From: Candidatus Omnitrophica bacterium CG02_land_8_20_14_3_00__42_8
GTDB lineage: Bacteria > Omnitrophota > Gorgyraeia > Gorgyraeales > Gorgyraeaceae
Direction of reading: 5' to 3'
Assembly: GCA_002780805.1 (NCBI GenBank)
Contig: PEUD01000002.1
Location: 1-26,721, forward strand
DNA: 26,721 nucleotides
Position numbers and translations under genes: made by a program. The notes below the pieces were generated by a model that had not been told where the DNA came from, did no database searches, and saw nothing but the letters and a program-made list of their open reading frames with translations. How positions within the stretch are numbered: the stretch's first letter is position 1; every line of letters begins with the position of its first letter. Shown in pieces: positions 9,524-25,420 of this stretch.

Positions 9524-10939
9524 TTAATTGATTTTTAAAATCGATAACGCGCTAAGGTATCTTTTTATGTCTTCTAAAGTCCTGATTTTCGATATCCTGC
9601 CCGCTATATAAGAAGGCCGTTTATAAAAAGACGCATAGGCCTGTCTTTGAAAAGATTGGAGCTTATTTAAACCGATGTTTCTATTCACATAGGAGGCCAC
9701 TTTACCTGTAATAAGGTATTTTGAATAATCCGCTTCCAGCGCATCTTCGCCTTTGGCTATCTCGTACAGCCTTGTCCCGGGGTAAGCCTGCGGCAGGTAA
9801 AACGTCGCGTAGTCAATACCGCTTGAAAGCGCGAAATCAACGGTATCTTTGACTGTTTCCTCTGTTTCTCCTGGAAAACCCAAAATAAAAAATGCCCTTA
9901 CTTCCATACCGGCTCTCTTTACCATTTTTATGGCTTCGGACGCGGTTTTAACGGTAATACCCTTGCTGATGGCTTTTAGTATATTATCGTTGCCGCTTTC
10001 TATACCGAAGTCCACTGACCAGCAGCCCGCGGATTTCATATGCTTCAGCATATTGACAGTAATCGTGTTGACCCTGCCGTTACAGCTCCAGAGCAACCCG
10101 TATCTTTTGATTTCATCGCAGAAATCAATTGTTGTTTTTTCATTCATCGTAAAAACATCGTCCCAAATCCTTAATTCCTTTGTTTTGAATTTTTTTGCCA
10201 GCCTGTCCACCTCATGCATTACGTTTTCTATGGACCTTGATTTCACAGAAGGCCCGAAAGCCCCGCGGTCGCAGAATATACACGAATACGGACAACCCCT
10301 TGCCGTCAATATGGACCTTACAGGCGTTCTTTTATAACTTGAAGGCGTCCTTTTATATTTGGATAAAGGCAGATATTCCAACGCTGGAAAAGGCAGCGTA
10401 TCTATGTCCTTCATAAGCTTTCTTGGTGAATTTATATGGCATTTGCCGTCGGGGCTTTTCCAGAGTGTCCCGTCAATGTTATCTGTATTTCTTTTTTCAA
10501 TAATCGCCCTCACCAAGTCCAAAAATGTGTGTTCGCCTTCGCCGTAAACTGCAAAATTAAAAAGATTGCTGTCATTAAGCAGATATTCGCCCAGGCCAGC
10601 ATTCACCATACTGTTTACATGCGGCCCTCCTATAACTGTTATCGCGTCAGGCTGTATCTCTTTAATTAATGATAAATTTTTCTTTGTCGTATACCAGTCA
10701 GGCGTATATGTACTTATCCCAATAATATCATATTTTTCCTTCAACAGAAATGCGCTGAAAGCAGCACTGTCATACCCCTCCGCGAGACAGTCCAGCACCT
10801 CAACATTATAGCCGGCCTGTATTAAGACCGCCGCTAAATAAGCGATGCCTAAAGGCTCTGAAACAGTAAATATTTCATCAATGGCCTTTATTGAGGACGG
10901 ATTATATTCTCTTGTCGTTGTACAAAGTAGTATCTTCAA
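9524..10939 (-). CDS. Cobalamin-binding domain radical SAM protein (class B, BchE/HpnJ-like architecture) #1
   Basis: EPLGIAYLAAVL, DIIGIS, IGGPH (B12 domain); TARGCPYSCIFC (CxxxCxxC); WDDVF; FGIESGN; FILGFPGET; AYPGT. TTG start with an AGGT RBS. Confidence 0.92.
   Translation of the reverse strand: MKILLCTTTREYNPSSIKAIDEIFTVSEPLGIAYLAAVLIQAGYNVEVLDCLAEGYDSAAFSAFLLKEKYDIIGISTYTPDWYTTKKNLSLIKEIQPDAITVIGGPHVNSMVNAGLGEYLLNDSNLFNFAVYGEGEHTFLDLVRAIIEKRNTDNIDGTLWKSPDGKCHINSPRKLMKDIDTLPFPALEYLPLSKYKRTPSSYKRTPVRSILTARGCPYSCIFCDRGAFGPSVKSRSIENVMHEVDRLAKKFKTKELRIWDDVFTMNEKTTIDFCDEIKRYGLLWSCNGRVNTITVNMLKHMKSAGCWSVDFGIESGNDNILKAISKGITVKTASEAIKMVKRAGMEVRAFFILGFPGETEETVKDTVDFALSSGIDYATFYLPQAYPGTRLYEIAKGEDALEADYSKYLITGKVASYVNRNIGLNKLQSFQRQAYASFYKRPSYIAGRISKIRTLEDIKRYLSALSILKIN
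10322..10357. repeat. Two near-identical 15-mers with 21-bp period inside radical SAM #1 (YKRTP twice)
   Basis: AGGCGTTCTTTTATA (10322-10336) and AGGCGTCCTTTTATA (10343-10357); protein KYKRTPSSYKRTPVRS. Confidence 0.6.
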
Positions 10940-10954
10940 TTTTACCTGAAAGTT

Positions 10955-11629
10955 TTATAAATTAAAAACATCCAAAAACAGCCTCCAGAAGAACAAATAT
11001 GCCTTTCTGTAAGTAGGCAACTTGGAAACGCCCCATTTTCTTTCATATTCATGAGTAGCTACCTCTGCGACCCTGTATTTCTTCTTAAGGCACTGCACTA
11101 TCATGTGCTGTTCAACATCAAAATTATTAGCCCTTAATTCAAGTTTCAATCCGACATCTCTTTTTACAGCCCTAAACCCGTTCAGGCATTCAGTGAGATT
11201 TACCTTCCATAGATAATTGATAATCAAGGTTAAAAGCCCCCCGCCAACGCTGCGCAAATACGTATCAATATCGCCTTTCCATTCATCGCTTCCGCCCTTG
11301 TGCCTTGAGCCTATCACCAAATCCGCCTCATTTTTCACTATTGGCTCTATCAACGCCGGAATCTGCGACGGATCATGGGAGCCGTCGGCATCCATAAAAA
11401 CAACTATATCCATTGCTGCTTCTTTTATGCCGACTTTATACGCATCCCCCTTGCCTTTTTTATTGTCAGAAACAACTTTGGCCCCCGCAGAAGAAGCGCA
11501 TTGGGAAGTTTTATCGCTTGAATGCCCGTCTACCACTATAATCTCGTCAGCAAAATTTTTTGCTGATTCTACCAGACGGGATATGCCGCCTTCTTCATTT
11601 TTAGCCGGTATTACCAATGAAACAGTCAT
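10955..11629 (-). CDS. GT2 glycosyltransferase, DPM1-like polyprenyl-phosphate sugar synthase (soluble, about 224 aa)
   Basis: MTVSLVIPAKNEE, VVDGHSSDKT, KKGKGDAY, FMDADGSHDP, DLVIGSR, LNGFRA, FDVE. Start placed at ATG 11629 (ATGA overlap with the upstream stop) rather than the track's 11641. Confidence 0.9.
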   Translation of the reverse strand: MTVSLVIPAKNEEGGISRLVESAKNFADEIIVVDGHSSDKTSQCASSAGAKVVSDNKKGKGDAYKVGIKEAAMDIVVFMDADGSHDPSQIPALIEPIVKNEADLVIGSRHKGGSDEWKGDIDTYLRSVGGGLLTLIINYLWKVNLTECLNGFRAVKRDVGLKLELRANNFDVEQHMIVQCLKKKYRVAEVATHEYERKWGVSKLPTYRKAYLFFWRLFLDVFNL

Positions 11630-12894
11630 AAGCGCCCGCACCTGGATCTATTAAAAAATATAACAGCTCCTATTCCCAGAAGAAACCAAAAATGCCGCAT
11701 GGTCAATATATCAACGCTGAAACCGGCTATCAAAAAAGCTATTACGCCTAACGCGATAATCCTGGCATCTCTTTTAAAAAAGGCATTTTTTATATTAAGC
11801 CATAGAAATAACAATGTGGCAAATAACCCCAATATGCCTGTTTCTGACGCCCACCCCAGATATGTGGAATGTGGATCTTTTGTCTTCCATTCAATATTAT
11901 CGGGGTCAGGCAGCACCTTTTTGGCTTTATCCCAATCCACATAATTAACAAGATTATAATTATACCTGCCAAGGCCCACGCCGACAACAGGATGGTCTTT
12001 CCACATCTTTAAAGCCGCCTCCGATAAAATCAGATATTCTGATTTTTGTGTATTTATTTTAAACGGCTTAAACTCTACCGGAAACACCCAGACAGCCAAG
12101 GTCATAAAAGATAATACAAGAAAAATACAGGCTAAAAATAACGCCGGTATCTTCAGCAAAATATATTTTTTCCCCGGATATAAAATAAATAAGCTCGAGG
12201 CGGCTAATAAAAATACGGGCCCGAGGATCCTGCTTTTAGTCAGCAAGGCTGTAAAGAGATGCAGCGATAATACAAAAATATAAAAACCATAATCCTTGGC
12301 CCGCGCCATCCTGCTTTTTATTATCATAAAAATAAACGTTATGCTTGTTATAAAATATGCGGCAAACATATTAGGATTTTTAAGCGTAGAGCTTGCCCTG
12401 AGATAAAATTGCGCCTGATGGGGAATGCTTGATATTTTGTCAACAGACTGTATTTGCGGCGTCAGGATATTCAAAGAACCTGAAAATAAACCTGCTATAT
12501 AGCCCAAAATCCCTATGACGCACACGACGCTGCTTACCAACACCCACACACGGATACACCTGCACAGATATTCATCTTCTTTTATTAATAATACGGCGGA
12601 AAAATACAGCGCTACTAAATACACTGTTGCCGCGTATTCTATAATTTCCCTGGAATCAAACCCGTTAAAAACCAAGGAAATAAAAAATGAGAACAATAAA
12701 AAAGCCGCGGGCAGCAAAAACGGCACGCTCATTTTATCTTTTGCTTTTATGTGTTCGTATATAAAAAATAACAAAAATACGACAAATAATACATCGCAAT
12801 ATTGTATCTTGCTCCCGATAAAAGGCAGTTCAGGGACCTTCATGACAGGCAGCAATATAATATAGAATAAAAACAGTATTTTACTGATTTTCAT
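11626..12894 (-). CDS. O-antigen ligase / Wzy_C family membrane protein
   Basis: About 10-12 hydrophobic segments; RASSTLKNPNMFAAY, LLTKSR, MWKDHPVVGVGLGRY, DPHSTYLGWASETGILG (the H..Y.....E.G..G motif of WaaL/Wzy_C). Confidence 0.85.
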   Translation of the reverse strand: MKISKILFLFYIILLPVMKVPELPFIGSKIQYCDVLFVVFLLFFIYEHIKAKDKMSVPFLLPAAFLLFSFFISLVFNGFDSREIIEYAATVYLVALYFSAVLLIKEDEYLCRCIRVWVLVSSVVCVIGILGYIAGLFSGSLNILTPQIQSVDKISSIPHQAQFYLRASSTLKNPNMFAAYFITSITFIFMIIKSRMARAKDYGFYIFVLSLHLFTALLTKSRILGPVFLLAASSLFILYPGKKYILLKIPALFLACIFLVLSFMTLAVWVFPVEFKPFKINTQKSEYLILSEAALKMWKDHPVVGVGLGRYNYNLVNYVDWDKAKKVLPDPDNIEWKTKDPHSTYLGWASETGILGLFATLLFLWLNIKNAFFKRDARIIALGVIAFLIAGFSVDILTMRHFWFLLGIGAVIFFNRSRCGRL

Positions 12895-12903
12895 TTGATT
12901 AAA

Positions 12904-12912: not shown

Positions 12913-14757
12913 TCAAATATAACCTTTCACCAGGTAATAGGCTATGCCTAAATATTCATGCATAATGGCTTTTATCTGCTCCAGCCTTACACCTCTGGAC
13001 CTGTCATAAAACTGGCTGTTACTGACAGGGGCATACACCACCCTGACACCGCGGCCTGATTTATCAAATACCGCCTTTGCCCTTCTCATATTATAAGGCG
13101 ACGTGACAAGTAAAACGGTTTTATAGTTATTCTTGTTCAGGATATTTTTTGAAAATATAACGTTTTCATAAGTGCTGTTTGCCTTTTCCTCTAAAATAAT
13201 ATCCTCTGCCGGCACACCCATAGAGAGAGCGAAAAGTTTCATGTTCTGGGCATCGTTGTATATATACGTGTATCCTGATGAAAATATCAACTTATTCGCG
13301 TACCCTTTGTTGCGCAATTCAACGGCATATCTGGCCCTCTCAATAGTACTCTTACCGGGGCTACCTGTTTCTCCGACCCCGCCTCCAAATACCACTATCG
13401 CGTCAGCCTTTTGCGGCATTTCAGAAATTCTTAAAGGGCTTGCCAAAAACCAGATAAAGGGCGTTGTAAACAGTAAAAAATAAACCAGCGCGCAAACAGC
13501 GCCGAAACGAAATACCTTTCTTCTGGCAACCCTGTAAAAATTAACCAGGTTTTCCTTCCACATGGCTTCCATATCCGTTGTTTTTCTCTCAATTTCAGCC
13601 TCTATCAAACTACTCATATTCTCTATGCGCGCCGCCCAGCTGTTCTGGCTGGCAACTTCTATTCTAACCCCTGCTAAAGAATCTTTATTTTCATTAACCG
13701 TTTGCGTAAGATATTTATCAAATTTCGCGCTGTCATCTGCTACATACACAACATTATTGTAAGTCCTGTTAAACGATATAACCTCAGGCAGGGATGTGGA
13801 TACAACCGCCTTACCCATTGCCAAATATTCATTTAATTTTGTCGGATAGACGTTTTTCGTATAATCAGTGATAGCGTACGGGATAATGCATGTATCAAAA
13901 TATTTGATGAATAGCGGCAGTTTCTGGTGGTCTTTTTTGCCCAGGAAATAAACATTCTTGAAAAGCGAAAACAGGGTTATATCAGTCTGCACAGGCCCTA
14001 TAAAAACAAAAGAATATTCCGGGTGCGCCTCTGCCAGGCCTTTCACCAGGCGCTGGTCGATCCATTTGTGCACACCGCCTATATAGCCGACTATCGGCTT
14101 TTTAATGCCAACCAGCTCCTCCGGCATCGGATCCTGCCCAAACAGGGCCTTCTGGAACTTGTCAAAATTTACGGCAAAAGGGAAACTATACACCTTGCTG
14201 TTATATTTAGAACAGTAGTTGTACAATTCCGCAGAGGTCACAAAAACCAAATCCGCTTTTTTTAACAATCTCTCTTCTGAGCGCTTTATCTTTTTAGCTG
14301 AAGCTGAACTGACGGCAAAACTATCAATACAATAATAAATAAATATTTTTTTCTTCAGATTATCCGCTATATCAAGACTTAAAGGGGTCGGCAAAAATGT
14401 CCATACGACAGGATCGCTGAAATTCATCGCCTTCATCCACTTTTCCAATGCGGAAAGGATTAAACGCCTGTTTATCCATCTTACAGCCCTGAGATAAGGA
14501 AACGGAAAAACCAACGGCGAAAATATATACAGGTTATGCGCCTCCTTATTTATACCCCTTGTCCCTTTAAACCAATTCTTAACCCTGTTTCTAATCCTGG
14601 AAAAATCTTTTATGCCCGGGGCCCTTACACCTGTATTTTCAATAAAAAGGACTCTATTGCCGTTTTTAGCAAGGTTGCTCATTATTTCCTGGTGCCCCTG
14701 CCATATAAAATCCCAATCTATGCTGGATATGCAGATAATGTCTTTATTTTTTAGCAT
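12913..14757 (-). CDS. Fusion: TuaH-like GT-B glycosyltransferase + single TM helix + YdcF/ElyC/SanA (DUF218) domain
   Basis: N-terminal: DIICISSIDWDFIWQGHQEIM, RVLFIEN, YYCIDSF, ADLVFVTS, VGYIGGV, FVFIGP, YPTKLNEYLAMGKAVVST. Hydrophobic stretch FGAVCALVYFLLFTTPFIWFLA. C-terminal: ADAIVVFGGG, RARYAVEL, LIFSSG, GVPAEDIILEEKANSTYENV, VLLVTSPYNMRRA, HEYLG. Confidence 0.87.
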   Translation of the reverse strand: MLKNKDIICISSIDWDFIWQGHQEIMSNLAKNGNRVLFIENTGVRAPGIKDFSRIRNRVKNWFKGTRGINKEAHNLYIFSPLVFPFPYLRAVRWINRRLILSALEKWMKAMNFSDPVVWTFLPTPLSLDIADNLKKKIFIYYCIDSFAVSSASAKKIKRSEERLLKKADLVFVTSAELYNYCSKYNSKVYSFPFAVNFDKFQKALFGQDPMPEELVGIKKPIVGYIGGVHKWIDQRLVKGLAEAHPEYSFVFIGPVQTDITLFSLFKNVYFLGKKDHQKLPLFIKYFDTCIIPYAITDYTKNVYPTKLNEYLAMGKAVVSTSLPEVISFNRTYNNVVYVADDSAKFDKYLTQTVNENKDSLAGVRIEVASQNSWAARIENMSSLIEAEIERKTTDMEAMWKENLVNFYRVARRKVFRFGAVCALVYFLLFTTPFIWFLASPLRISEMPQKADAIVVFGGGVGETGSPGKSTIERARYAVELRNKGYANKLIFSSGYTYIYNDAQNMKLFALSMGVPAEDIILEEKANSTYENVIFSKNILNKNNYKTVLLVTSPYNMRRAKAVFDKSGRGVRVVYAPVSNSQFYDRSRGVRLEQIKAIMHEYLGIAYYLVKGYI

Positions 14758-15811
14758 TTTTTAATATACCTATATATTTTTTTGCGTTAATCTCTGCTGA
14801 AAACATTTCCTCAACTGTTTTCCTGCCTGCAAGCCCGGTCGTCCTTCGCAAAGGCACATCCTCTATCAGCCTGGATAGTTTTTCAAACCACTGATCTTCT
14901 GTGGCAGCCAAAAAACCATTTTTCTCGTCTGAAATGAATTCATTGATCATCCCTACCGGAGAAGCTACGACAGGAACGCCTACTGACATATACTGAATGG
15001 CCTTAAAACCCGCCTTACCGTACGCCCACTGATTATCTATTAACGGATATATGCCTATGTCTATACTTTGAAAATCTTCGGCTTCTTTTTCCAGGCTCCA
15101 ATCGTAATTTTCAACTTTTACGCCAGGTACAGAGATATTTTGCTTTGCCCCTACAATCTTCAGAATAAAATCATATTTTGCGCTCAGCCTTTCCATAACA
15201 TTGAATATTATTTTCAGGTAAAAAGCTGTTGTTGGCGAACCTATCCAGCCTATGGTTAAGCGCTCTGATTTTTTTTCGGATACAAAAAACTTTTTAGTGT
15301 CTATTGGCGTAGGCAATATGTGAACCGAATTGTTAAATTTCCTTGCGTATTCCTCCAGAAACCTGTTGGCAACTATAACCACTGAAGACATTTTTATAAT
15401 TGCCCTGGTCTTAGATGGAAATTTCAAAAACCTGTAAAACCTGTTAACAGGGTTATAGTTCGGCAGAAAAATTGCATCGTCAAAATCAAAAATTATCGGC
15501 TTTCCCAACAAATGCATAATCCATTCAAAAACAGGCGGTCCGAACGGGCAGGCTTCACGGTGTATAAATACAACGTCATACCTGTGCGCCCTGATAATAT
15601 CCAAAAAACGTATCAAGATAGCTTTTATAAAATAATCTGTCTTTTTGCAAAAATTGCCCTTTACGTAAAGTATTCCATAAAATTTGTCAAAAGCAAACGG
15701 GCTGATATCATAATCTATATTTTCCGCTTTTAAATACGGAAAATACTGCTCCACCCTGAATCTATTGCTCGGGCCTTTTGAGGAATATGGCACTATAAAT
15801 AATACTTTCAT
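14744..15811 (-). CDS. GT4 family glycosyltransferase
   Basis: MKVLFIVPY, SNRFRVEQY, IIFDFDDAIF, IGWIGS, KAGFKAIQYMSVGVPVVASPVG. Confidence 0.92.
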   Translation of the reverse strand: MKVLFIVPYSSKGPSNRFRVEQYFPYLKAENIDYDISPFAFDKFYGILYVKGNFCKKTDYFIKAILIRFLDIIRAHRYDVVFIHREACPFGPPVFEWIMHLLGKPIIFDFDDAIFLPNYNPVNRFYRFLKFPSKTRAIIKMSSVVIVANRFLEEYARKFNNSVHILPTPIDTKKFFVSEKKSERLTIGWIGSPTTAFYLKIIFNVMERLSAKYDFILKIVGAKQNISVPGVKVENYDWSLEKEAEDFQSIDIGIYPLIDNQWAYGKAGFKAIQYMSVGVPVVASPVGMINEFISDEKNGFLAATEDQWFEKLSRLIEDVPLRRTTGLAGRKTVEEMFSAEINAKKYIGILKNAKK

Positions 15812-17031
15812 TTTGTGAGCTCGCTGTATATCCTGCGATAACTATCTGCGCCCATTTCCAGCGACAGATACTTCCGGGCTACTGCGCGGCACCTGCCTGC
15901 AAGGGTTTTACCTTCCTGCAACAATTCAAATAATTCTTTAATCTTATCCATGTATTCATTTTTATTGAAGTCTTTGATTACCACCCCTACGCGATTATCC
16001 CTGACCAGCTCCTCTGTATCTCCGATTCCGGAATTTATAATAACAGGCTTTCCGCAGGCTAAAAATTCGCCAAGCTTAATAGGGGATGACCCAAATTTTT
16101 TATACGGATTTATAAAAAATATGCCTGCGTCTGCGCAATTCAGTAAAACCGGTATCTCCTCATATAAGGGATGGATAAAATAGGCCTTTTGGCTGTCTAT
16201 ACTGATTTTCTTTTTGTTTAACACCTCTATATCATCCTGCGTCAAAATCAAAAATTTTAAATTCTGATTTTTGCCGGATGCGCATTCAAAAAAATCCATC
16301 ATTTCTTTTATTAAATAAAAAGTGCCCAGCTTGCCGGGATAGATAAACAGCATATCTGCCGTTATACCGTATTTTTTAAGCGCATCTTTCTTACGGATGT
16401 CGCTATAATCCCCGAATCTTTCCATATCAACGCAGCACGGTATAACAGATATGGAGATATTTTTGTCTTTAAAGTATCCTGTATCAGCGATACTGCTTCT
16501 GTGCTTTTCTGTCAGAACCACCACTGCATCGGTTTTACTGAACAGTTTTTTTTCTGCGGCCTTGACAAGGTTAAAAAACACCCCGGCTTCCTTCCACAGC
16601 CCGCCGCCTACGTATTCTTCTGCCAGGAGCCCCCTTGTGTCAAATATAAACTTAAACCCTAATATGCGCGGCAGAAATAAGGCTATAACTCCAGGCGTCA
16701 CGCCCCTTACATGGATAATCCCGAACCTATGCCTGGCCGCTAGATATAAAGATACAAAAAAACCTGTTATTACGTCAAAAAAAGTGGATATTTTATCGGG
16801 ATACTTGTGGTAAACAAGCCATTTCCAGGTAATCCCGTAATTTTTCAGCTCATCGCCTATACGTTTCAGCTCTCCAGGCGTATATTTCTCCAGGTCTTTC
16901 TTCTTTTCAAACGTCAGCAGGACAAATTTATACCCGTCTTTTGAAAGTATTTTAAGATAGGGCGTAACCTGTGATGGCAAAATACTTTCCAGCAGGCCGT
17001 TATAAGAAATGTAAAGGACCTTTTTATTCAT
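15808..17031 (-). CDS. GT4 family glycosyltransferase
   Basis: KVLYISYNG...SQVTPYL, IIHVRG, IFDTRGLLAEE, VIPCCVD, YPGKLG, SSPIKLGEFLACGKPVI. Confidence 0.9.
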   Translation of the reverse strand: MNKKVLYISYNGLLESILPSQVTPYLKILSKDGYKFVLLTFEKKKDLEKYTPGELKRIGDELKNYGITWKWLVYHKYPDKISTFFDVITGFFVSLYLAARHRFGIIHVRGVTPGVIALFLPRILGFKFIFDTRGLLAEEYVGGGLWKEAGVFFNLVKAAEKKLFSKTDAVVVLTEKHRSSIADTGYFKDKNISISVIPCCVDMERFGDYSDIRKKDALKKYGITADMLFIYPGKLGTFYLIKEMMDFFECASGKNQNLKFLILTQDDIEVLNKKKISIDSQKAYFIHPLYEEIPVLLNCADAGIFFINPYKKFGSSPIKLGEFLACGKPVIINSGIGDTEELVRDNRVGVVIKDFNKNEYMDKIKELFELLQEGKTLAGRCRAVARKYLSLEMGADSYRRIYSELTK

Positions 17032-18481
17032 GTAACGACCTGTATAAATCCCGCACTAATTTTATTGCTACGCCGCGAAACTGCGTAGCAAGCATTTTAA
17101 AAAGCCTTATTGGATTATTAAGATTATACTTGATGAAATAAAACAGGTTTATAGGCAGCACGGTTGATATCCTTGCTTTCATATACAGCCTTTCGAATCT
17201 TTTATGAGGCATGTCGGCATAATTAAAATTGAAGCCCTCAGGATCTCCTATGACGTCCCAGCTTGGAACCTGCATGCTTTTTTCCTTTAGCATCTTATAA
17301 ACCGAAGTCCCGGGCAAAGGCATAAACAGATTAAGGCTTATTGTGTTAGGGCGGACTTTCCATAAAAATTTTAACGTTTTATTGAAGTCTTCTTCTGTCT
17401 CCCCGGGGTAACCCGTAATAATATTGCCCTGAAATCTTAAGCCTGAGCTTCTGGTAATCCTAGCTGCCTGTATATTTTTCTCAACCTTAACATTTTTTCC
17501 CATTAGATCCAGTATTCTCTGCGATCCGGATTCAAAGCCGTATTCAACCTGCACGCATCCGGAATCCTTCATCATATCCAGCAATTCCCTGTCAACAATA
17601 TTAGTCCTTAACTGGGCAAACCATTTGATCTTTTTATTAAACTTGTTCTCCTTGAACAGCTCCATAAATTTTTGCGCGCGCGCCTTATCACTCAGAAACA
17701 TATCCTCCGCAAAATAAAGGCCTTCTATGGCATACATATCTATAAGCGTTCTTATTTCCTGCATAACGCGCTGGGGTGAATGAAAACGGACTTTTCTGCC
17801 GTAAAATAAAGGCCCTGCGCAGAAATTGCACTGGTAAGGGCACCCCCTGGCAGTAAATATGGATGTAGAGCGCAGGTTAAGGTTTCTGCTTATATACCTG
17901 CTTGGCCTGGTATAAAACTTCATATCCAATAAATGCCTTGCAGGCAAAGGCAGAGAATCCATGTCCTGAAATAGCGGCCTGTCTGCGTTACTGAATATCT
18001 GCCCTTTATCTCTGTAGGTTAACCCCGATATCAGATCAAAAGGCATGCCGCTTGCCAGATCAAGCATTGTAAATTCGCCTTCGCCTCTTACAACCCCATC
18101 AATATAATCGCAATCCTTCAATGTTGATTCAGGCTCTGCTGTAACATGCGGCCCGCCTGTAATTACTATTCTTTTCGGGTTATGCGATTTTACTATTTTG
18201 GCAACATAAAAAACATCCGATATTGTAGGAGTCGTGCCGCCTATACCAACAATATCCGAATTGATGCTTTCTATGGCTGCCTCTGTCTCTCTGTCAGCCC
18301 TGTCAAAATCCATGCTGTTTTTTCTAAGCAAGGCGTCTCTGTCAATTATATTGACCTTATGGCCGTTTTTTTCCAGGACTGCCGCAATATAAGCAAGGCC
18401 CAAAGGCGGCCAGTACTGCTTATTTTCATCTATAAGGCTTCTTGACCTTGATAATAAAGGGTATATTAAAGATACATTCAT
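17024..18481 (-). CDS. Cobalamin-binding domain radical SAM protein (class B) #2
   Basis: WPPLGLAYIAAVL, DIVGIGG, ITGGPHVT, VVRGEGE; TARGCPYQCNFC; YFAEDMF; YGFESGSQRIL; IITGYPGET; MPLPGT. Confidence 0.93.
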   Translation of the reverse strand: MNVSLIYPLLSRSRSLIDENKQYWPPLGLAYIAAVLEKNGHKVNIIDRDALLRKNSMDFDRADRETEAAIESINSDIVGIGGTTPTISDVFYVAKIVKSHNPKRIVITGGPHVTAEPESTLKDCDYIDGVVRGEGEFTMLDLASGMPFDLISGLTYRDKGQIFSNADRPLFQDMDSLPLPARHLLDMKFYTRPSRYISRNLNLRSTSIFTARGCPYQCNFCAGPLFYGRKVRFHSPQRVMQEIRTLIDMYAIEGLYFAEDMFLSDKARAQKFMELFKENKFNKKIKWFAQLRTNIVDRELLDMMKDSGCVQVEYGFESGSQRILDLMGKNVKVEKNIQAARITRSSGLRFQGNIITGYPGETEEDFNKTLKFLWKVRPNTISLNLFMPLPGTSVYKMLKEKSMQVPSWDVIGDPEGFNFNYADMPHKRFERLYMKARISTVLPINLFYFIKYNLNNPIRLFKMLATQFRGVAIKLVRDLYRSLHE

Positions 18482-19806
18482 TAAGGCGTTTTCTCTTTTC
18501 CTGTTTTAAAACTTAACCCTGCCCCTATTAATATAAAAATAAAGGGCAGGACCATTGACCTGTGCCTGAATAAAGTCCCTACGTTGCCTTCTATAAAAGC
18601 AAAAATCAGCATCATCACAAATATGTATGCAATTATTGCCCCGCCTTCTTTCATCTTATACTTCATAATAAAATACCATCCTGAAAACATGGCAGGCAGT
18701 AAAATATAATATAACAGCATTTCCGGCATAGCCATTATTTGAATCATGCTCGAGATCTCCCACGGAAAAGGAGCCAGCCATGCTATCAACAGCGCTATTG
18801 GTAAAAATACTCCCACATCCGCCGGATTTGTAAATTTCCAATTTTCAAGAAAAGCTGATCCGCCGTATGCCCTGTAACTGCGCATCTCAGATATCCAATC
18901 CAGCATCGAAAGGCTGCCAAAAGGCAGTATCTTTAGCAGGTACGCTTTCAGCACTGTAAAAAACATAAAAATTAGGAACAAAACCAGAATTATAAAAAAT
19001 ATGAATTCCGCCTTTCTGGTTTTCCACAGTGACAGTAAAAAAGACAGCGGAATTGAAATCGCGAAAAACGCAAAAAATAACAGCGATCTGAATTCCTTTA
19101 CGGCAAAGCTAAACGCTATAAACAAGGCAATCAGGTAAAATCTGAACTGTATTTTTAACTGCAGCGCGCTCCATATTAAAACAACAATCAAAAATACGGA
19201 GATGGGTTCTTTAAGATTTTGCACAGACCAGAAAAATAAGGACGGCCAAAATGCCGTTAAAACAGAGGCATACCTTGCGGCCTTTTTGCTGAAAACCTGC
19301 TCTGTTATGAAAAACACAATTACAGCCGTAAGGGAACCTGCCAAACAGTTGATAAGTATCAAAGACATGGGATTCACGCCTGCAAAATAGTAAACTATGG
19401 CATTCCAGAAATCATAACTGCCCACTGTTCCGCTGGCATTAGAAATATCGCTTATTAAATAATTACTGATATAGTCAATATCGTGTATTCCTATTAACCA
19501 CATCCGCAGTATTTTGTAACCATTCTCGGCATAGGGCTGGCCGTCGCCTAATAAACCGTTTCCGTTTAATAAAAAAACAAAATTATACAATAAAAAAGCT
19601 GCTATTATTCTGGTTAAAAATGCCATGATAAAAACGCCTGACAAAAAAATGTAATCTTTCAATTTTTCCTGTTTATGCATGGATAAAAATACGCCTATAA
19701 AAAATCCAAAAATTATAATAAAAACAGGGAAAATATAAGGCCACGGCAAACACATTAAAGCAGCCGATATCACGGCAATAATAAGGAAAACAAGATTTTT
19801 ATTCAT
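18481..19806 (-). CDS. Polytopic membrane protein, putative GT-C fold polysaccharide polymerase/transferase (Wzy-like)
   Basis: About 11-12 hydrophobic segments; loop GDGQPY, WSVQNLKEP, WLAPFPW, GNVGTLFRHRSMVLPF. The pattern resembles GT-C/Wzy-type proteins of glycan loci; the exact family was not resolved by eye. Confidence 0.6.
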   Translation of the reverse strand: MNKNLVFLIIAVISAALMCLPWPYIFPVFIIIFGFFIGVFLSMHKQEKLKDYIFLSGVFIMAFLTRIIAAFLLYNFVFLLNGNGLLGDGQPYAENGYKILRMWLIGIHDIDYISNYLISDISNASGTVGSYDFWNAIVYYFAGVNPMSLILINCLAGSLTAVIVFFITEQVFSKKAARYASVLTAFWPSLFFWSVQNLKEPISVFLIVVLIWSALQLKIQFRFYLIALFIAFSFAVKEFRSLLFFAFFAISIPLSFLLSLWKTRKAEFIFFIILVLFLIFMFFTVLKAYLLKILPFGSLSMLDWISEMRSYRAYGGSAFLENWKFTNPADVGVFLPIALLIAWLAPFPWEISSMIQIMAMPEMLLYYILLPAMFSGWYFIMKYKMKEGGAIIAYIFVMMLIFAFIEGNVGTLFRHRSMVLPFIFILIGAGLSFKTGKEKTP

Positions 19807-19810: not shown

Positions 19811-22129
19811 CTAGAAATATCTGTGTTTTATAAAATCTAAATAACAAGCCAAGTAATCAAATTTTTCACTACAATAAAGGCATGGCTGACCAATTTTTTT
19901 GAACCGCTTATTAATAATATCGTCCATTATTTGGCGCCTTTTTTCGGATTTCCACAGATCGTAAATTGAATTCTTTAATACATTTCCGTATGTCAATCTT
20001 GTGTTATAATCCAAACAGCAGATATAAACATCACCTTCTGTTGATATAAACATCTTGTCAAAAAAGGCCTCCCCAAGAATACCTGAAGGGCAGCTTATGC
20101 GCCTCTTTTCTTTTGCCTGGTTGTTCCAGCTGTAAAACCATATGATTTCGTCGATACAATCATAGGCCGATAGAAAATCCTTCCAATATTGAATAACCTG
20201 AGGGGAATCGTACGGCGCGTTAATTTTTTTATTTTTTCTTAAATTCATATATCTTTTCGGAGAAAGTATTTCTATGCATACCTGGCAGCTGCTGCCTGCT
20301 TTATTCCTTGCAGATATAAAATCGTGCAGATTTACCTTTACCTTGTTGAAATTAAGCCCGGGCTTACTGTGCCTGTATGTCTCTTCTGAGGCGCCGTCTA
20401 TATTCAGGGTCAGCTTTGACAGGTTGTGCTTAATCAGGAATTCTGAAACATCCCTGTCTACATTCATCATATTGGTATAAAGCACAAGCTTTGCCAAAGG
20501 CAGCCTCTCGCGCGTATATTCAATAATATTTTTAAAATCCGGGTTTAGCAGCGCGTCCCCGTTTTCTCCGAAATTAATGCTGCCTGAAAATTCGTGGCCT
20601 GCCAACTCATCAACCACCTTCTTTACAACTCTCATTGGCATAAATCTTTCCTTACCTGATAAATCTTTTTTATACGGCACAGGGCAAAAAATGCAGTTAG
20701 CCTGGCATTCCCTGCTAAGCATGAAACCGATAAACTTAAACGGCAGATTCATCTTCCTGTTGTATATGCGCTTATTTGACAGCATTAATGCCGGCTCCCA
20801 TGACTTGGCGATACTTTTAATAACATGGTATTTTTTACTGCCCTTCAGCTCGCATTCATAAAACTTCATAAATTGACTGATAATCCTGGCCGGGTTTAAA
20901 ATGTTTACGCCTACTGCTGAAAAAATCAAAATCAAAGGCATAATCGGAACCTGGTACCTCACCTCTCCAAAAAATATCGTATGTATGCCCGCAACATAAA
21001 AAATAGGCAAAAGAACAGGAAGCAGGGTCTTCAGCTTGGCGCGCGATACAAACATCCCCACACCTGCCAGCGCCAGCAAAAACAGGCTTATAATCAAAAG
21101 CAGAATCTTTACTGCCAATACCCCAAACTCTTTTTTTGAAATTACTCCGGCAAAACTGTCCCTGGTCATATAAAATGCGCTTGAATAGCTGCCTATTAAA
21201 AACCTGCCCAGATGTTCCGCGCACAATCGCATATATATAAAAGGGTGTTGGCTTACATTTCTTAACCCCTCTTTAAAAAGCGCCTTATCCAAAAATATAT
21301 GGGATTCGGCTTTATTTAGGTCTAAATCCTTTACCAGGCTTTTAACCGGTTCATATTCTGACAGATTATCCCATTCCAGAAAACGGGCAGGATGGGAATC
21401 TTTCCAAAAAGTGCTGCCTGTGCCTGTAGCCACAGGCACAACTGATTTAAATCTGAAGTGGTTACGCATTGTCCAGGGAAAGATAACCAAAACCGCAGCT
21501 ATGGCGGCTATTAAACTATACAGGCCTATCTTTTTCTTATAACGGTAAGCCAGCGCCAAAAGAAGAGGAAAAATAACTACCAACAGCAGCATTTCCTGGC
21601 GGCACAAAACCAGCAGCCCGAGAAATATGCCGAACAAAATGTAAAAAATCAACGCATCTTTGCGCAAGGCAGTAACCAGAAAATAAAGCGCCGTTAAAAC
21701 CAGAAAACCGGAGATTGTTTCGGTTAAAATAAGGCCGCTGTAAAAAATGAGCGCCGGGTGCAAAACCGATAACACCGATGCGCGCAATGCGATTTTATGA
21801 TCTATTAACTGCTTCGTTATTACATATATCAAAATACAGCAGAAAGCGCCTATAATCGCCTGAAAAATCCTTATAATAAGATAGTTATGACCGAAGGAAT
21901 AATAAAAAAAAGCCAACGTAAACGGGTACAGCGGCGGCCTGTGCGCAGTCAAAGACCCGTCCGGATGGGAAAAACCCTTTCCGTCGGCAATCTGGCTAGC
22001 CAGATTATCATAATCTATGGCATCGGTTGTTATGGGAACCTGGGGCAGATATATTACATACCCAAGGCGCAGTATCAACGCCGCTAAAAATATTAAAAAT
22101 AAAAGATTTCTGGGTTTAATGTTTGACAT
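19811..22129 (-). CDS. Fusion: ArnT/PMT-like GT-C (GT39/GT83-type) membrane glycosyltransferase + C-terminal radical SAM domain with SPASM/twitch extension
   Basis: N-terminal: TDAIDYDNLA, AHRPPLYPF, LILTETIS, PWTMRNH, EVRYQVPIMP with many TM helices. C-terminal: RECQANCIFCP (CxxxCxxC, 20684-20707), LTLNIDG, C...EGDVYICCLD...GNV...IYDLW...CLYC. One uninterrupted frame. Start placed at ATG 22129 (AAGGA RBS) rather than TTG 22153. Confidence 0.87.
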   Translation of the reverse strand: MSNIKPRNLLFLIFLAALILRLGYVIYLPQVPITTDAIDYDNLASQIADGKGFSHPDGSLTAHRPPLYPFTLAFFYYSFGHNYLIIRIFQAIIGAFCCILIYVITKQLIDHKIALRASVLSVLHPALIFYSGLILTETISGFLVLTALYFLVTALRKDALIFYILFGIFLGLLVLCRQEMLLLVVIFPLLLALAYRYKKKIGLYSLIAAIAAVLVIFPWTMRNHFRFKSVVPVATGTGSTFWKDSHPARFLEWDNLSEYEPVKSLVKDLDLNKAESHIFLDKALFKEGLRNVSQHPFIYMRLCAEHLGRFLIGSYSSAFYMTRDSFAGVISKKEFGVLAVKILLLIISLFLLALAGVGMFVSRAKLKTLLPVLLPIFYVAGIHTIFFGEVRYQVPIMPLILIFSAVGVNILNPARIISQFMKFYECELKGSKKYHVIKSIAKSWEPALMLSNKRIYNRKMNLPFKFIGFMLSRECQANCIFCPVPYKKDLSGKERFMPMRVVKKVVDELAGHEFSGSINFGENGDALLNPDFKNIIEYTRERLPLAKLVLYTNMMNVDRDVSEFLIKHNLSKLTLNIDGASEETYRHSKPGLNFNKVKVNLHDFISARNKAGSSCQVCIEILSPKRYMNLRKNKKINAPYDSPQVIQYWKDFLSAYDCIDEIIWFYSWNNQAKEKRRISCPSGILGEAFFDKMFISTEGDVYICCLDYNTRLTYGNVLKNSIYDLWKSEKRRQIMDDIINKRFKKIGQPCLYCSEKFDYLACYLDFIKHRYF

Positions 22130-22997
22130 ATTTCCTTTTATTACTTGCAACAACCAGAATATTGGCTGATAAAATATCCCGTAAAAACGGAATTTTCAAG
22201 ATCGCGGACTCAAAAGAAACCCGCAAAAAATTCAATCTGCTGATAAACCTGTTGCCGAAAGGAAGATAAAATTCGTCATTTTTGTAAAAAAAGTTTATTT
22301 TGCGAAACCCGATATCCCGGCACAATTTTCTTGCTTGAAAAGGCGTAATCTCGCCGATATGGCTTGCGGTCAAAAAAACAGTTTCCATAGATACTTTGTC
22401 ATTAAAAAATATCTTCCTTAATGCCTCGTTAAGCTTCTGATTTATAACAAAAATTTTATTCGGCGTGTATGCTACAAATACCCCTGCCTGCTTTAATACA
22501 TAACCAATTCCCTGCCTTATGCTTTTCTTCTGATTTTTGGTCAAATGCTCTAAAAAATCGGCTGATATAATTTTATCAAAAGAACCTTCCCTGAAAGGCA
22601 ATGACGCGGCATCGGCGCATACAAAATACCTGCGCCCGTTTGAACTATCCGGAAATTGTTGATTTATTTTTTTTGCCACCTTAAGCGACTCCAGCGAATA
22701 ATCAAGCCCTATACATAAACCGGTATGCTTTGCGCAGTTAAAAGTAAACGTCCCTATGCCGCACCCTAAGTCCAGAACGCGCTCTCCTTTTTTAAGGACT
22801 GCGGCAGCGAGAATCCTGTCTACCCTGTGCCTGGAACATTCTCCGTCAGATGCATAATAATCAGCTATTTGTTTTTCTATAGGTATACACAAAGCCACTT
22901 TATCATGAAATGTCTTGTTAAAAATATCAGCAGGTATAGTATCGCGCCTATCATACAGATCTTTCAACATCCAGGCTATATCCTTATTTGTCTGCAT
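22116..22997 (-). CDS. Class I SAM-dependent methyltransferase (Methyltransf_11/25-like)
   Basis: RVLDLGCGIGTF, IGLDYS, CADAASLPFREGSFDKIISADFLEHL, YTPN; AAGGA RBS at 23003-23007. Confidence 0.9.
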   Translation of the reverse strand: MQTNKDIAWMLKDLYDRRDTIPADIFNKTFHDKVALCIPIEKQIADYYASDGECSRHRVDRILAAAVLKKGERVLDLGCGIGTFTFNCAKHTGLCIGLDYSLESLKVAKKINQQFPDSSNGRRYFVCADAASLPFREGSFDKIISADFLEHLTKNQKKSIRQGIGYVLKQAGVFVAYTPNKIFVINQKLNEALRKIFFNDKVSMETVFLTASHIGEITPFQARKLCRDIGFRKINFFYKNDEFYLPFGNRFISRLNFLRVSFESAILKIPFLRDILSANILVVASNKRKYVKH

Positions 22998-24081
22998 TTT
23001 TGTCCTTAAGACCTATCAGGCTTATAAAAAACGACGCCATCACTACCTGTATGCCAAACACCATCAATATAAAGCTGGATAGAAAAAGCTTGGCATCGGC
23101 ATATTCATATGCCTTGCTAAAATTCAAGCCTATCCCTGCCGCAAACAACAGAAAACCCAGCAGGATTCCCTGCTCTAATTTACAATATCTGTAAAACCGC
23201 TTAAAAAACGCTGTCTTAAGCGTATAGCCCTCTGTAAAGGAATATTCGCTGGCAAAAAGCCATAAAATCAATATCTGAAATCCCAAAATTATCCCCAGGC
23301 CACCCAGGCTTATCAATTTAAAATTGTCGCTTAACCCAAAAATGGAAACGCCTAAAATAAAAAGCGCCAACCCAGGCAGCAAAAAAAGATAATTGGGACA
23401 GAATAAAAGTATAAACCTCAAGCTGCGCCACCCGTCAAGAAAAGTCCTTAGCTTGGATTCGCCCTGCCTGGCATCCAGGGTAATGGGTATTTCCGCGCGT
23501 TTTAAATTAAGTAAAGATGACTTTATGACCAGCTCCAGGCAAAATTCCATACCTCTGCTTAAGGGATTAATTTTTTTATAAGCCTCTTTTGTAAACGCCT
23601 TAAAACCGCAATATACATCGGAAAAACGCGCTTTAAACACAAAACCTATAAGCCATGTCAGCCCCGGGTTGCCTATATACTGATGCAGCCACGGCATAGC
23701 GCCTTTTGCTATATGCCCCTTAAACCGGCTGCCGCTTACAAATTCAAACCCGTTGCGCAGCTTTTCTACGAATTTTCCGATTTCCGAAAAATTATAGGTA
23801 TCATCAGAATCGCCTATTATTATAAATTTGCCTTTTGCCTCTTCTATACCCTTCAGGTATGCGCTGCCATACCCTTTTATCGGCTGATTAACTATTCTGG
23901 CGCCTTCCTTCCTGGCCATCTCAATAGAATTATCGCTTGACCCATTATCAGCAACAATAACCTCTCCGCTGATCCCAAGCTTTTCCAGGGCCTGACTTGC
24001 CTTCCTGACGCATATGCCTACGGTTTTCTCTTCATTTAAACACGGCATCACCACCGATACTTCAATGTTATTTTGTTCCAT
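22984..24081 (-). CDS. GT2 glycosyltransferase, DPM1/ArnC/GtrB-like, with C-terminal transmembrane helices
   Basis: VSVVMPCLNEE, VADNGSSD, GYGSAY, IGDSDDTY, VSGSRF, DVYCGFKAF, GMEFCLE, KLRTFLDGWRSLRFILL, then about 4 hydrophobic segments; GAGGGG RBS at 24090-24095. Confidence 0.92.
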   Translation of the reverse strand: MEQNNIEVSVVMPCLNEEKTVGICVRKASQALEKLGISGEVIVADNGSSDNSIEMARKEGARIVNQPIKGYGSAYLKGIEEAKGKFIIIGDSDDTYNFSEIGKFVEKLRNGFEFVSGSRFKGHIAKGAMPWLHQYIGNPGLTWLIGFVFKARFSDVYCGFKAFTKEAYKKINPLSRGMEFCLELVIKSSLLNLKRAEIPITLDARQGESKLRTFLDGWRSLRFILLFCPNYLFLLPGLALFILGVSIFGLSDNFKLISLGGLGIILGFQILILWLFASEYSFTEGYTLKTAFFKRFYRYCKLEQGILLGFLLFAAGIGLNFSKAYEYADAKLFLSSFILMVFGIQVVMASFFISLIGLKDKNADK

Positions 24082-24082
24082 T

Positions 24083-25420
24083 TTATTTTCCCCTCGCTTG
24101 CAGTATTATTGCCAGTTTTTCCCTGATGCGCTGTATAAATCTTCTCATCTCAAGCATCCTGTAAAATTTGCGGTGCATGCTCCTAAGCTGTGCGCGCGAA
24201 AGGCGCTCTGATAATATTATGGCTTTTTCAAAGTTTTCCCTGAAATCCATCTTAAGGCACGACCAGTCCATTTCGTCTGAAACCAGGCCTCTTTTTTTGG
24301 CATAATCCCAGATAGGCGTCCCCGGAAATGGTGTCAGCACATAGACATCGGCATAATGCAGCTTATTTTTCTTTATAAAATTATACGTATCCATCATCGC
24401 GCGTTTTGTCTCAGTAGGATGGCCTATTACAAAACTGCCCACAACGCGTATGCCGGCGTTATTACACAGCCTGACTGCCCGGCGGTTATTCTCTACGCTC
24501 ACAGTCGCGCCCTTTAAATATTTCAACGACTCCGGATTGCCTGATTCCAAACCGCAAGTCACAAACTTTATTCCCATTTCTTTAAGTGCTGACACAATGT
24601 CCTCAGTAAGCAAGTTTGTCCTTATTGAAGCGCCAAATTCTACTTTTTTATCCAGCCCCTTTGATTTTATAAGCTCTTTGATTTTAAAAACTCTTTTTTT
24701 ATCCGCAATAAACAAATCATCCATAAAAAATATCTCTTTAACAGGGTAATTTTTAACCAGTTCCTCTATTTCAGAAACAACATATTCTGCGGAAAAAAAT
24801 CTGACGCGGTTAAAAAAGCGCGTAGAAGCGCAAAATACACAGTCATAAGGGCAGCCGCGCGAACTAAACACATAGGTTGTAGGCCCAATATCCATAAGAT
24901 CCCTTGCAGGCATAGGCAGATCATCCAGATTATTAATCAAAGGCCTTGAGACAGTTTGAACCAAACGGCCTTTATCCCGGAATATAATACCTTTTACTCC
25001 TGATAATACATTAACAGGCAGATCGCGATTCTCAAAATAAAGCTTTACCAGGTCAAAAAATGTTTCCTCGCCTTCCCCGAGAACGCCAACATCTGCTTCT
25101 GACGGCAATAAGTGAGGCAGCGAAGAAATATGTATGCCGCCCATAATTACCTTACAGCCTTTTTCTTTTGCCAGACGCGCATGACTCATTGCCAAATTAA
25201 AATTCTGCGATATCGTTGATATTCCTACAATATCCGGCTTAAAAGAATCTATCTGGCTTTCAATATCCTCATCTATAATCCTGCACTCTATATTAAGCTG
25301 GCCTGCGTTTTTCCTTAAGAAGCTGACGATATAGCCCAACCCAAGCGACGGATATTTGCAGAGCTTCATCTGCTGCTGATAGTCAAATGTATTTATAAAT
25401 AGAATTTTAATCGGCATCAT
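24083..25420 (-). CDS. Cobalamin-binding domain radical SAM protein (class B) #3
   Basis: YPSLGLGYI, PDIVGIS, IMGGIHIS, GVLGEGE; SSRGCPYDCVFC; FFMDDLF; GLESGN; SFVIGHPTET; TPFPGTPIW. Confidence 0.93.
   Translation of the reverse strand: MMPIKILFINTFDYQQQMKLCKYPSLGLGYIVSFLRKNAGQLNIECRIIDEDIESQIDSFKPDIVGISTISQNFNLAMSHARLAKEKGCKVIMGGIHISSLPHLLPSEADVGVLGEGEETFFDLVKLYFENRDLPVNVLSGVKGIIFRDKGRLVQTVSRPLINNLDDLPMPARDLMDIGPTTYVFSSRGCPYDCVFCASTRFFNRVRFFSAEYVVSEIEELVKNYPVKEIFFMDDLFIADKKRVFKIKELIKSKGLDKKVEFGASIRTNLLTEDIVSALKEMGIKFVTCGLESGNPESLKYLKGATVSVENNRRAVRLCNNAGIRVVGSFVIGHPTETKRAMMDTYNFIKKNKLHYADVYVLTPFPGTPIWDYAKKRGLVSDEMDWSCLKMDFRENFEKAIILSERLSRAQLRSMHRKFYRMLEMRRFIQRIREKLAIILQARGK

Follow-up and report, generated by a model that had tools for sequence, protein, structure and literature searches.

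Why does a bacterial genome place radical S-adenosylmethionine (SAM) enzymes with cobalamin (B12)-binding domains between its glycosyltransferase (GT) genes? The question is raised by a 26,721-nucleotide stretch of DNA, here called the window, which is the whole of contig PEUD01000002.1 (positions 1 to 26,721, forward strand) of Candidatus Omnitrophica bacterium CG02_land_8_20_14_3_00__42_8 (GCA_002780805.1; GTDB lineage Omnitrophota; Gorgyraeia; Gorgyraeales; Gorgyraeaceae), a metagenome-assembled genome (MAG) of 1.14 Mb in 152 contigs that is 75% complete. An earlier note, made from the sequence alone, had proposed that three such enzymes form a B12-dependent system for tailoring surface glycans. 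We call them rSAM1, rSAM2, and rSAM3 (P0001, P0002, and P0003); P labels denote library proteins, L labels denote loci, and C labels denote contigs of this genome (the window is C115) unless a G number precedes them, as in G207:C9. Our analysis leads us to conclude that the window is probably most of one operon-like, variable surface-glycan locus of the lipopolysaccharide (LPS), O-antigen, or exopolysaccharide (EPS) type, in which rSAM1 to rSAM3, together with a fourth radical SAM enzyme fused to a GT-C transferase, would tailor products of the glycan assembly line by radical chemistry on carrier-linked sugars.

Nearly identical DNA occurs in at least 24 metagenome runs of groundwater and aquifer origin, and homologues of the window's proteins are mostly labeled Omnitrophica or Omnitrophota. 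The closest named relative of rSAM1 is a protein of Candidatus Gorgyraea atricola (79% identity).

Pairing of radical SAM enzymes with glycosyltransferases

The three genes lie exactly where the earlier note had placed them (Table 1), and each encodes an N-terminal B12-binding domain (PF02310, 55.5 to 75.2 bits, gathering cutoff of 32.1) followed by a radical SAM domain (PF04055, 87 to 95 bits, cutoff of 29.5), which is the domain order of the class B radical SAM superfamily. The translations contain all of the motifs that had been read from the sequence (PLGxAY or SLGxGY near the N terminus, GGPH or GGIH, RGCPYxCxFC, ESG, and PGT), with a single CX3CX2C per enzyme (at residue 216 in rSAM1, 214 in rSAM2, and 190 in rSAM3) and no membrane helix candidate. 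Pairwise identity among the three is 29 to 32%, and a maximum-likelihood tree built with 66 homologues places them in three separate supported clades, where each enzyme is more closely related to proteins from elsewhere than to its neighbors in the window; they are thus divergent paralogs, as had been proposed. Homologues of rSAM3 at 48 to 50% identity include Patescibacteria, WOR-1, and Thermodesulfobacteriota records. In a protein atlas, where the matched clusters carry generic names only, the second match of rSAM3 is a 68-member cluster of B12-binding radical SAM proteins with features close to its own, in which the commonest labeled taxon is Uroviricota (tailed phages).

None of the eight B12-domain paralogs in the genome reaches the cutoff of a curated NCBIfam model. 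HpnJ (TIGR03471) ranks first for five of these paralogs, and for the remaining three, rSAM3 among them, it is only 2 to 7 bits behind the top model, BchE (TIGR02026). HpnJ gives 208 bits for rSAM1, 213 for rSAM2, 137 for rSAM3, and 104 to 180 for the other five paralogs against a cutoff of 577.6; BchE gives 166, 178, and 143 bits for rSAM1, rSAM2, and rSAM3 (cutoff of 481). Scores in the same order are 96, 134, and 118 bits for QCMT/MgmA (TIGR04014, cutoff of 360) and 63, 89, and 73 bits for B12_rSAM_oligo (TIGR04295, cutoff of 400).

The evidence for a link between these enzymes and glycans is strong, and it comes from the genes around and within them. All eight PF02310 proteins of the genome are B12-domain radical SAM (B12-rSAM) enzymes in glycan loci, three of them on the window contig, and the six contigs that carry B12-rSAM genes, which make up 5.6% of the assembly, account for 16 of its 36 GT1/GT2 domain matches. 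With three of the eight B12 domains on 26.7 kb of a 1.14-Mb genome and this share of the GT matches, the association exceeds chance. One of these contigs (C109) carries Wzx, rSAM, polysaccharide deacetylase, methyltransferase, and GT4-DUF218 genes, another (C102) carries Wzx, methyltransferase, glycerophosphotransferase, GT9, GT4, and rSAM genes, and on C132 a GT2 gene directly precedes the rSAM gene. Bases 1 to 168 of C102 (minus strand), directly downstream of its rSAM gene, encode the N terminus of another B12-rSAM-like protein (P-x-x-L-x-Y-L-A-G-x-L followed by I-D-V-D-I-I-D), so the genome has at least nine genes of this type.

Several relatives of the window enzymes are physically joined to glycan enzymes. 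In the same genome, C69 encodes an 828-amino-acid fusion of a complete N-terminal GT4 with a B12-rSAM (L010:1388-3874, minus strand), followed by another GT4 gene and preceded by PilM/N/O, and C59 encodes a single protein, running off the contig end, with B12-binding, radical SAM, and Bac_transf polyprenyl-phosphate phosphoglycosyltransferase domains (L008:2-1765, minus strand); upstream of the latter are genes for a polysaccharide deacetylase-DUF3473 protein, a methyltransferase, and a GT2. Fusions to GT4 recur in the rSAM2 family (P0023, P0029, P0098, and L023), fusions to class I methyltransferases occur among relatives of rSAM3 and rSAM1 (P0351 and P0234), and a same-genus genome encodes a 758-amino-acid fusion of a B12-rSAM to a YdjC-like domain (L026:2313-4586, plus strand, on G207:C9), the best NCBIfam model for the YdjC-like half being HpnK (185.5 bits, cutoff of 232.6) in a genus where no hopanoid cyclase was found. 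A contig of Candidatus Gorgyraea atricola encodes a GT2-Radical_SAM fusion of 675 amino acids (L036:11433-13460). The same locus, which also holds an rSAM1 orthologue and three GT2/PMT_2 pairs, encodes a 462-amino-acid methyltransferase-GT2 fusion (L036:15633-17021).

Gene order tells a similar story. Orthologues of rSAM2 (E ≤1e-100) are followed directly by an orthologue of GT4_b (33 to 51% identity) in 5 of the 6 loci that have downstream sequence, GT4_c is kept after GT4_b in L021 and L023, and homologues of the PMT_2-like membrane protein lie upstream of rSAM2 orthologues in L018, L020, and L024. An 81%-identical GT2_b orthologue directly precedes the rSAM1 orthologue in L047, with a 232-amino-acid GT2 at the same place in L036, and L037 keeps the order GT4_a, rSAM3, GT2_a, MT_a, GT-C, with GT4_a 72% and GT2_a 79% identical to their window counterparts. 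Farther afield, homologues in WOR-1, Patescibacteria, Thermodesulfobacteriota, a Helarchaeota archaeon, and an unclassified bacterium are surrounded by GT2, GT4, Wzx, Wzy, methyltransferase, and PMT_2 genes, as are homologues in other Omnitrophota. Taken together, the conserved pairs, the fusions with GT4, phosphoglycosyltransferase, and YdjC deacetylase domains, and these neighborhoods in five phyla bear out the proposal of a surface-glycan system.

The distribution of the enzymes is patchy: orthologues were found in 9 (rSAM2), 7 (rSAM3), and 2 (rSAM1) of 200 sampled genomes of the phylum and in neither of 2 sampled same-genus genomes, and the 13 genomes of the genus that were compared carry between 2 and 23 B12 domains each. 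This patchy presence and variable copy number fit a variable surface-glycan locus built of exchangeable cassettes. One further B12-binding domain match, at G203:C4:18056-18406, lies inside a 5,973-amino-acid open frame that encodes a giant protein of a congener.

The earlier note had counted three radical SAM genes; the three of B12 type stand, and a fourth radical SAM domain in the window, of the SPASM type, had been missed. It is fused to a GT-C transferase, with a CX3CX2C at residue 483 and seven further C-terminal cysteines. Contigs from three independent runs span the fusion frame without gaps and with only four or five substitutions, which excludes an assembly error as its source. Nearly all relatives encode the two halves as separate proteins, none of the 150 best library representatives spans both, and in L037 a 64%-identical GT-C stops after its last helix and is followed by a methyltransferase gene; the fusion of GT-C to radical SAM-SPASM thus appears to be specific to this lineage. 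Other fusions involve relatives of the SPASM enzyme, joined to a GT4 (P0430) or a methyltransferase (P0386), and the same GT-C family, joined to a class I methyltransferase in P0408. Hydropathy-based topology of the GT-C half proved too crude to fix the number of helices, and only the Lys/Arg-rich junction after the last helix is informative; this junction suggests that the radical SAM-SPASM domain may be cytoplasmic, and the methyltransferase found at the same place in relatives (separate in L037, fused in P0408) also points that way.

Fold, cobalamin, and proposed chemistry

The AlphaFold2 model of rSAM2 (pLDDT of 91, pTM of 0.91) has the class B fold, a Rossmann domain on a partial TIM barrel. 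A Foldseek search with this model placed MgmA/QCMT, the methyl-coenzyme M reductase glutamine C-methyltransferase, first (E 3e-25, TMt 0.74) and AprD4 next (E 1.4e-24, TM 0.71 and 0.76), with further matches to TsrM, CysS, OxsB, and TokK (E 3e-25 to 1e-18 over the set from MgmA to TokK). Sequence searches against solved structures likewise returned MgmA/QCMT as the best match (profile score of 120 bits) and AprD4 as the second. In sequence, the N-terminal part of the rSAM2-family profile can be aligned to the domains that bind cobalamin in TokK, CysS, and OxsB, with GGPH in common, which gives moderate support for cobalamin binding.

Cobalamin is accessible to the cell by way of riboswitch-linked transport genes: a cobalamin riboswitch (67.5 bits) lies directly upstream of genes for a TonB-dependent receptor and TonB, beside FecCD/ABC genes. 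CobS and CbiB were not found in the source genome at its 75% completeness, nor were MetH, NrdJ, and QueG. Across the genus the riboswitch is present in 10 and CobS in 2 of 13 genomes, and no genome of the 13 yielded the MetH activation domain. NrdJ matches in three congeners (G200:C26, G205:C15, and G206:C145) are split in two inside single frames of about 1,200 amino acids, compared to about 770 amino acids in other congeners, which looks like an intein or other insertion in this ribonucleotide reductase.

We propose that each radical enzyme would be coupled to a specific transferase and act on the cytoplasmic side of the membrane. Cleavage of SAM would yield a 5'-deoxyadenosyl radical that abstracts hydrogen from a sugar at an unactivated carbon, and this sugar would already be, or be about to be, on a polyprenyl phosphate or diphosphate carrier; the paralog on C59 that is fused to a phosphoglycosyltransferase fits with action on carrier-linked sugars. 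The proposed partner of rSAM2 is GT4_b; the fusions of rSAM2-family members to GT4 enzymes suggest that its substrate would be the sugar with which GT4_b extends the lipid-linked chain. For rSAM1 with GT2_b and rSAM3 with GT2_a the substrate would instead be a polyprenyl-phosphate monosaccharide, as suggested by the DPMS- and ArnC-like character of the neighboring GT2 proteins, and a GT-C enzyme would later move this sugar. Since every characterized class B group includes C-methyltransferases (2026 review), the likeliest single outcome would be cobalamin-mediated C-methylation, as in GenK, GenD1, and MoeK5; given a glycan role, we regard this chemistry as possible, though by a modest amount we would sooner expect some other product.

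Known systems and competing explanations

The logic of making a polyprenyl-phosphate sugar with a GT2, editing it at the cytoplasmic face, and letting a GT-C use the product outside is that of ArnC-ArnD-ArnT and of DprE1/DprE2 with their arabinosyltransferases. The counterparts in the window would be two DPMS/ArnC-like GT2 proteins, each adjoining a B12-rSAM, and two GT-C candidates; the editors in the known systems, however, are a deformylase or an oxidoreductase pair rather than radical SAM enzymes, and the analogy is drawn from gene order. For the chemistry, the nearest counterparts are GenK, GenD1, Fms7, and MoeK5, the sugar-carbon C-methyltransferases of aminoglycosides and moenomycin, which share with the window enzymes the superfamily, the domain order, and the proposed sugar-carbon target, C-methylation being the commonest chemistry of characterized class B enzymes (2026 review). 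Those enzymes, however, belong to secondary-metabolite clusters of Actinobacteria, whereas the window enzymes are in surface-glycan loci, paired or fused with Leloir, polyprenyl-phosphate, and GT-C transferases. The best match by both sequence and fold, MgmA/QCMT (PDB 9CCB), a cobalamin-dependent Csp3 methylase, shares the Class I architecture of B12-radical SAM enzymes, but MgmA/QCMT acts on a protein substrate, the window host is not a methanogen, and the scores to TIGR04014 are 95 to 134 bits against 360.

Radical tailoring of a glycan could also proceed without cobalamin, with a degenerate Rossmann domain in a structural role, as in the apramycin enzyme AprD4 (PDB 6FD2), a radical SAM 1,2-diol dehydratase; the outcome would then be radical 1,2-diol dehydration (deoxygenation) or sugar epimerization. 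AprD4 has a sugar substrate, is close to MgmA in its match to the rSAM2 model, and ranks second among PDB sequences, and both it and ArsL lie within the class B similarity network yet bind no cobalamin (2026 review). It matches the rSAM2-family profile over the radical SAM half only (residues 167 to 401), though, whereas the cobalamin-bound TokK, CysS, and OxsB match the N-terminal domain too; PF02310 is well over its cutoff in all three enzymes, the AprD4 model (NF033070, cutoff of 500) gives 90 bits for rSAM1, 104 for rSAM2, and 79 for rSAM3, and no AprD3-like reductase gene adjoins any of them. We regard this explanation as unlikely. Also rather unlikely, in our assessment, is a ring contraction of the HpnJ type that would turn a lipid-linked amino sugar into a carbocyclic, cyclitol-like residue. 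The HpnI, HpnK, and HpnJ steps toward the cyclitol ether side chain of bacteriohopanetetrol, whose order is described in PMC13459092, do resemble the proposed scheme in that a GT adds an amino sugar to a lipid-anchored acceptor and a B12-rSAM then remodels the sugar. HpnJ is moreover the nearest curated model for most of the paralogs, the YdjC fusion of the congener joins HpnJ-like and HpnK-like halves, HpnK being the deacetylase that acts before HpnJ, and polysaccharide deacetylase genes adjoin two paralogs on other contigs of the genome. Yet the window enzymes reach at most about a third of the HpnJ cutoff, their context is of the WecA/Wzy type with no deacetylase gene in the window, the YdjC-fused protein comes from a long-branched lineage distinct from those of rSAM2 and rSAM3, and the function of HpnJ is known from genetics only, without biochemistry (PMC13459092). 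A search of the source genome and 12 congeners, of which 10 are 90% complete or better, found no squalene-hopene cyclase (TIGR01507), although control genomes also fell below the cutoff, so that the sensitivity of this search is undemonstrated; as far as the searches go, a hopanoid role for rSAM1 to rSAM3 is excluded.

A role in modifying a polyprenyl carrier, a glycolipid anchor, or a membrane lipid, in the manner of HpnP, HpnR, or the ladderane or glycerol dialkyl glycerol tetraether (GDGT) enzymes, would accommodate the lipid-type class B models among the matches (HpnR, and rSAM_ladder_B12 at 91 to 133 bits) and the fact that GT4 enzymes also make glycolipids. All of these models are far below their cutoffs, however, no lipid-synthesis gene was seen in the window or the related loci, and the missing cyclase speaks against it within the limits just given, all of which makes such a role improbable. 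Maturation of a ribosomally synthesized and posttranslationally modified peptide (RiPP) or of a glycoprotein, with the radical acting on amino acid side chains, finds some encouragement in PMT-type GT-C enzymes, which can glycosylate proteins, and in class B RiPP methylases (ApyD, TIGR03975) among the weaker NCBIfam matches, at 115 bits for rSAM1, 116 for rSAM2, and 72 for rSAM3 against a cutoff of 281.85. But the genes of the 21-gene array are at most 18 bp apart, and the 158 bp upstream of the first gene contain nothing but the tail of a reading frame that runs off the contig; such spacing leaves no room for a precursor gene, and the RiPP reading is rejected for this array. The window also has no peptidase or peptide exporter gene, and the fusion partners of the B12-rSAM enzymes are GT4, phosphoglycosyltransferase, and sugar deacetylase domains, not RiPP recognition elements, leaving protein or peptide modification very improbable overall. 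No characterized non-glycan family thus claims the enzymes: HpnJ comes nearest, at 104 to 213 bits over the eight paralogs, no cyclase was found, and their neighborhoods are enriched in GT genes, contrary to what the earlier note had listed as evidence against its proposal.

Several points nevertheless weigh against glycan tailoring by cobalamin-dependent radical chemistry. The cobalamin-free AprD4 is as near in fold to rSAM2 as the cobalamin-dependent MgmA/QCMT, and sequence cannot separate methylases from nonmethylases in this superfamily (2026 review). Pro85, in a T-T-P loop, aligns with the lower-axial W76 of TokK at about 17% identity and is uninformative; the lower-axial or stacked residues were dropped as a discriminator between the two, since W76/Pro85 decides nothing at that identity. 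B12-dependent NrdJ is present in 10 of 12 congeners and explains B12 import without any glycan enzyme, so that import gives no specific support for cobalamin use by the glycan enzymes; it was rejected as a sign of such use, and only availability remains. More distant rSAM3 orthologues have variable neighbors (a methyltransferase, a short GT2, or a further rSAM), the source genome is only 75% complete, and a predicted complex of rSAM2 with GT4_b scored 0.00, which is neither support nor contrary evidence. The domain make-up, packing, pairs, fusions, distribution, fold, and cobalamin availability are shown by the analysis, and we infer the substrate, the side of the membrane, the use of cobalamin, and the chemistry.

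The gene array and its wider meaning

The setting of the proposed tailoring enzymes is an array in which all 21 open reading frames are on the minus strand, with intergenic gaps of -38 to +18 bp (Table 1). The tight operon packing that the earlier note had described is therefore real, and the neighbors include GT4, GT2, GT-C, Wzy_C, and methyltransferase genes.

Table 1. Genes of the window in transcriptional order, with domain evidence
Feature	Coordinates	Strand	Evidence
GT4_a, GT4 glycosyltransferase, first complete gene	25427..26563	-	Glycos_transf_1 135 bits, Glyco_transf_4
rSAM3, B12-binding-domain radical SAM, 445 aa	24083..25420	-	PF02310 55.5, PF04055 91.9 bits
GT2_a, polyprenyl-phosphate-sugar synthase-like GT2, 4 C-terminal membrane helix candidates	22984..24081	-	PF00535
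MT_a, class I SAM methyltransferase	22116..22997	-	Methyltransf_31, _25, _11
Fusion, 780 aa, of GT-C (PMT_2, about aa 1-417) and radical SAM-SPASM (about aa 450-780)	19811..22153	-	PMT_2 53.6, Radical_SAM 50.1, SPASM 39.1 bits
PMT_2-like membrane protein, about 10 helix candidates, second GT-C candidate	18481..19806	-	PMT_2 26.4 bits, at cutoff
rSAM2, B12-binding-domain radical SAM, 485 aa	17024..18481	-	PF02310 75.2, PF04055 87.4 bits
GT4_b, putative partner transferase of rSAM2, 8-bp overlap	15808..17031	-	GT4 domains
GT4_c, GT4 glycosyltransferase	14744..15811	-	Glyco_trans_1_4 47 bits
GT4 + one membrane helix + DUF218 fusion	12913..14757	-	DUF218 98.5 bits, Glyco_trans_1_4; helix candidate 420-438
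Wzy_C-domain membrane protein (polymerase or ligase), 10 helix candidates	11626..12894	-	PF04932 52.5 bits
GT2_b, short soluble polyprenyl-phosphate-sugar synthase-like GT2, directly upstream of rSAM1	10955..11641	-	PF00535 92.6 bits
rSAM1, B12-binding-domain radical SAM, 471 aa	9524..10939	-	PF02310 63.7, PF04055 95 bits
FkbM-family methyltransferase	8638..9522	-	Methyltransf_21 61 bits; TIGR01444 97.7 bits, above cutoff
MT_b, class I SAM methyltransferase	7677..8648	-	Methyltransf_23 81 bits
AsnB-type glutamine amidotransferase	5777..7675	-	Asn_synthase 347 bits, GATase_7
GT4_d, GT4 glycosyltransferase	4599..5771	-	Glycos_transf_1 141 bits
NAD-dependent sugar epimerase/dehydratase	3643..4602	-	GDP_Man_Dehyd 192, Epimerase 184 bits
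WecA/MraY-type initiating phosphoglycosyltransferase + C-terminal CoA_binding_3	1865..3637	-	Glycos_transf_4 113, CoA_binding_3 60 bits; WecA model 119 bits, below cutoff
GT4_e, GT4 glycosyltransferase	757..1902	-	Glycos_transf_1 118 bits
GT9 (heptosyltransferase family), truncated by contig end	2..757	-	Glyco_transf_9 51.8 bits

The array combines a WecA-like initiator, several GT4 enzymes, two GT2 enzymes, and a Wzy_C protein, as in loci of the Wzx/Wzy type. No Wzx flippase gene is present in the 26.7-kb window; Polysacc_synt genes occur on C102 and C109, adjoining other B12-rSAM genes. Polyprenyl-phosphate-sugar synthases supply donors for GT-C enzymes, and both GT2 proteins resemble such synthases: GT2_a matches AglJ (121 bits), Dol-P-hexose transferase, PpgS, and ArnC models of NCBIfam, all below cutoff, with DPMS (5mlz) and ArnC as its closest solved structures, and GT2_b matches AglJ (138 bits) and PpgS (78 bits), with DPMS 5mlz as its closest solved structure. 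Among the other genes, the GT4-helix-DUF218 architecture recurs in L002, L036, and C109, and the AsnB gene recurs in L001, L002, and L036.

An open frame of 57 codons (26547-26720, minus strand) enters from beyond the contig edge and shares 17 bp with the beginning of the first GT4 gene, so the operon continues upstream. The gene order of L037 suggests that B12-rSAM, GT4, GT9, and Wzx genes, in an arrangement like that of C102, may lie there. Joining C102 to the window, as this order hints, was tried and rejected because the contig ends do not overlap.

The superfamily to which rSAM1 to rSAM3 belong is known; what is new are the unnamed subfamilies and a coupling to surface-glycan assembly that is undescribed in the literature we found. 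Searches for class B radical SAM enzymes together with O-antigen, capsule, polysaccharide, or LPS assembly returned nothing relevant, in agreement with the earlier note, which knew of no established role in O-antigen or EPS assembly. The class B similarity network comprises more than 100 groups, most of them unexplored (2026 review), and in a preprint on Omnitrophota genomes radical SAM and GT1 domains come up only where they occur together in giant proteins. As a tentative extension, in which we place slightly less than even confidence, class B radical SAM enzymes may make up a widespread and so far unrecognized tier of the pathways by which uncultured anaerobes build their surface glycans, in Omnitrophota, Patescibacteria, and further candidate phyla as well as in some archaea. 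The enzymes would be attached to glycosyltransferases, by docking or by fusion, and would modify polyprenyl-linked sugars through radical C-H chemistry, whether C-methylation, deoxygenation, or a ring contraction that yields a carbocycle. Such cells would carry C-branched or carba-sugars new to envelope glycans, and exchangeable cassettes of a transferase and a radical enzyme would diversify quickly between species.

The patchy distribution of the enzymes fits fast-evolving surface variation; that phages or predators exert the pressure behind it is speculative. If the proposed tailoring role is correct, it could help to explain why genomes of 0.9 to 1.8 Mb in this genus hold up to 23 such genes, and it would provide concrete enzyme-substrate pairs, namely, the polyprenyl-phosphate hexose made by GT2_b with rSAM1 and the product of GT4_b with rSAM2. 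A large uncharacterized part of the class B network would then become assignable to function through its partner transferases, and bacterial and archaeal surface glycans would include sugars of radical origin, a chemistry so far characterized for sugars only in antibiotic and hopanoid pathways.

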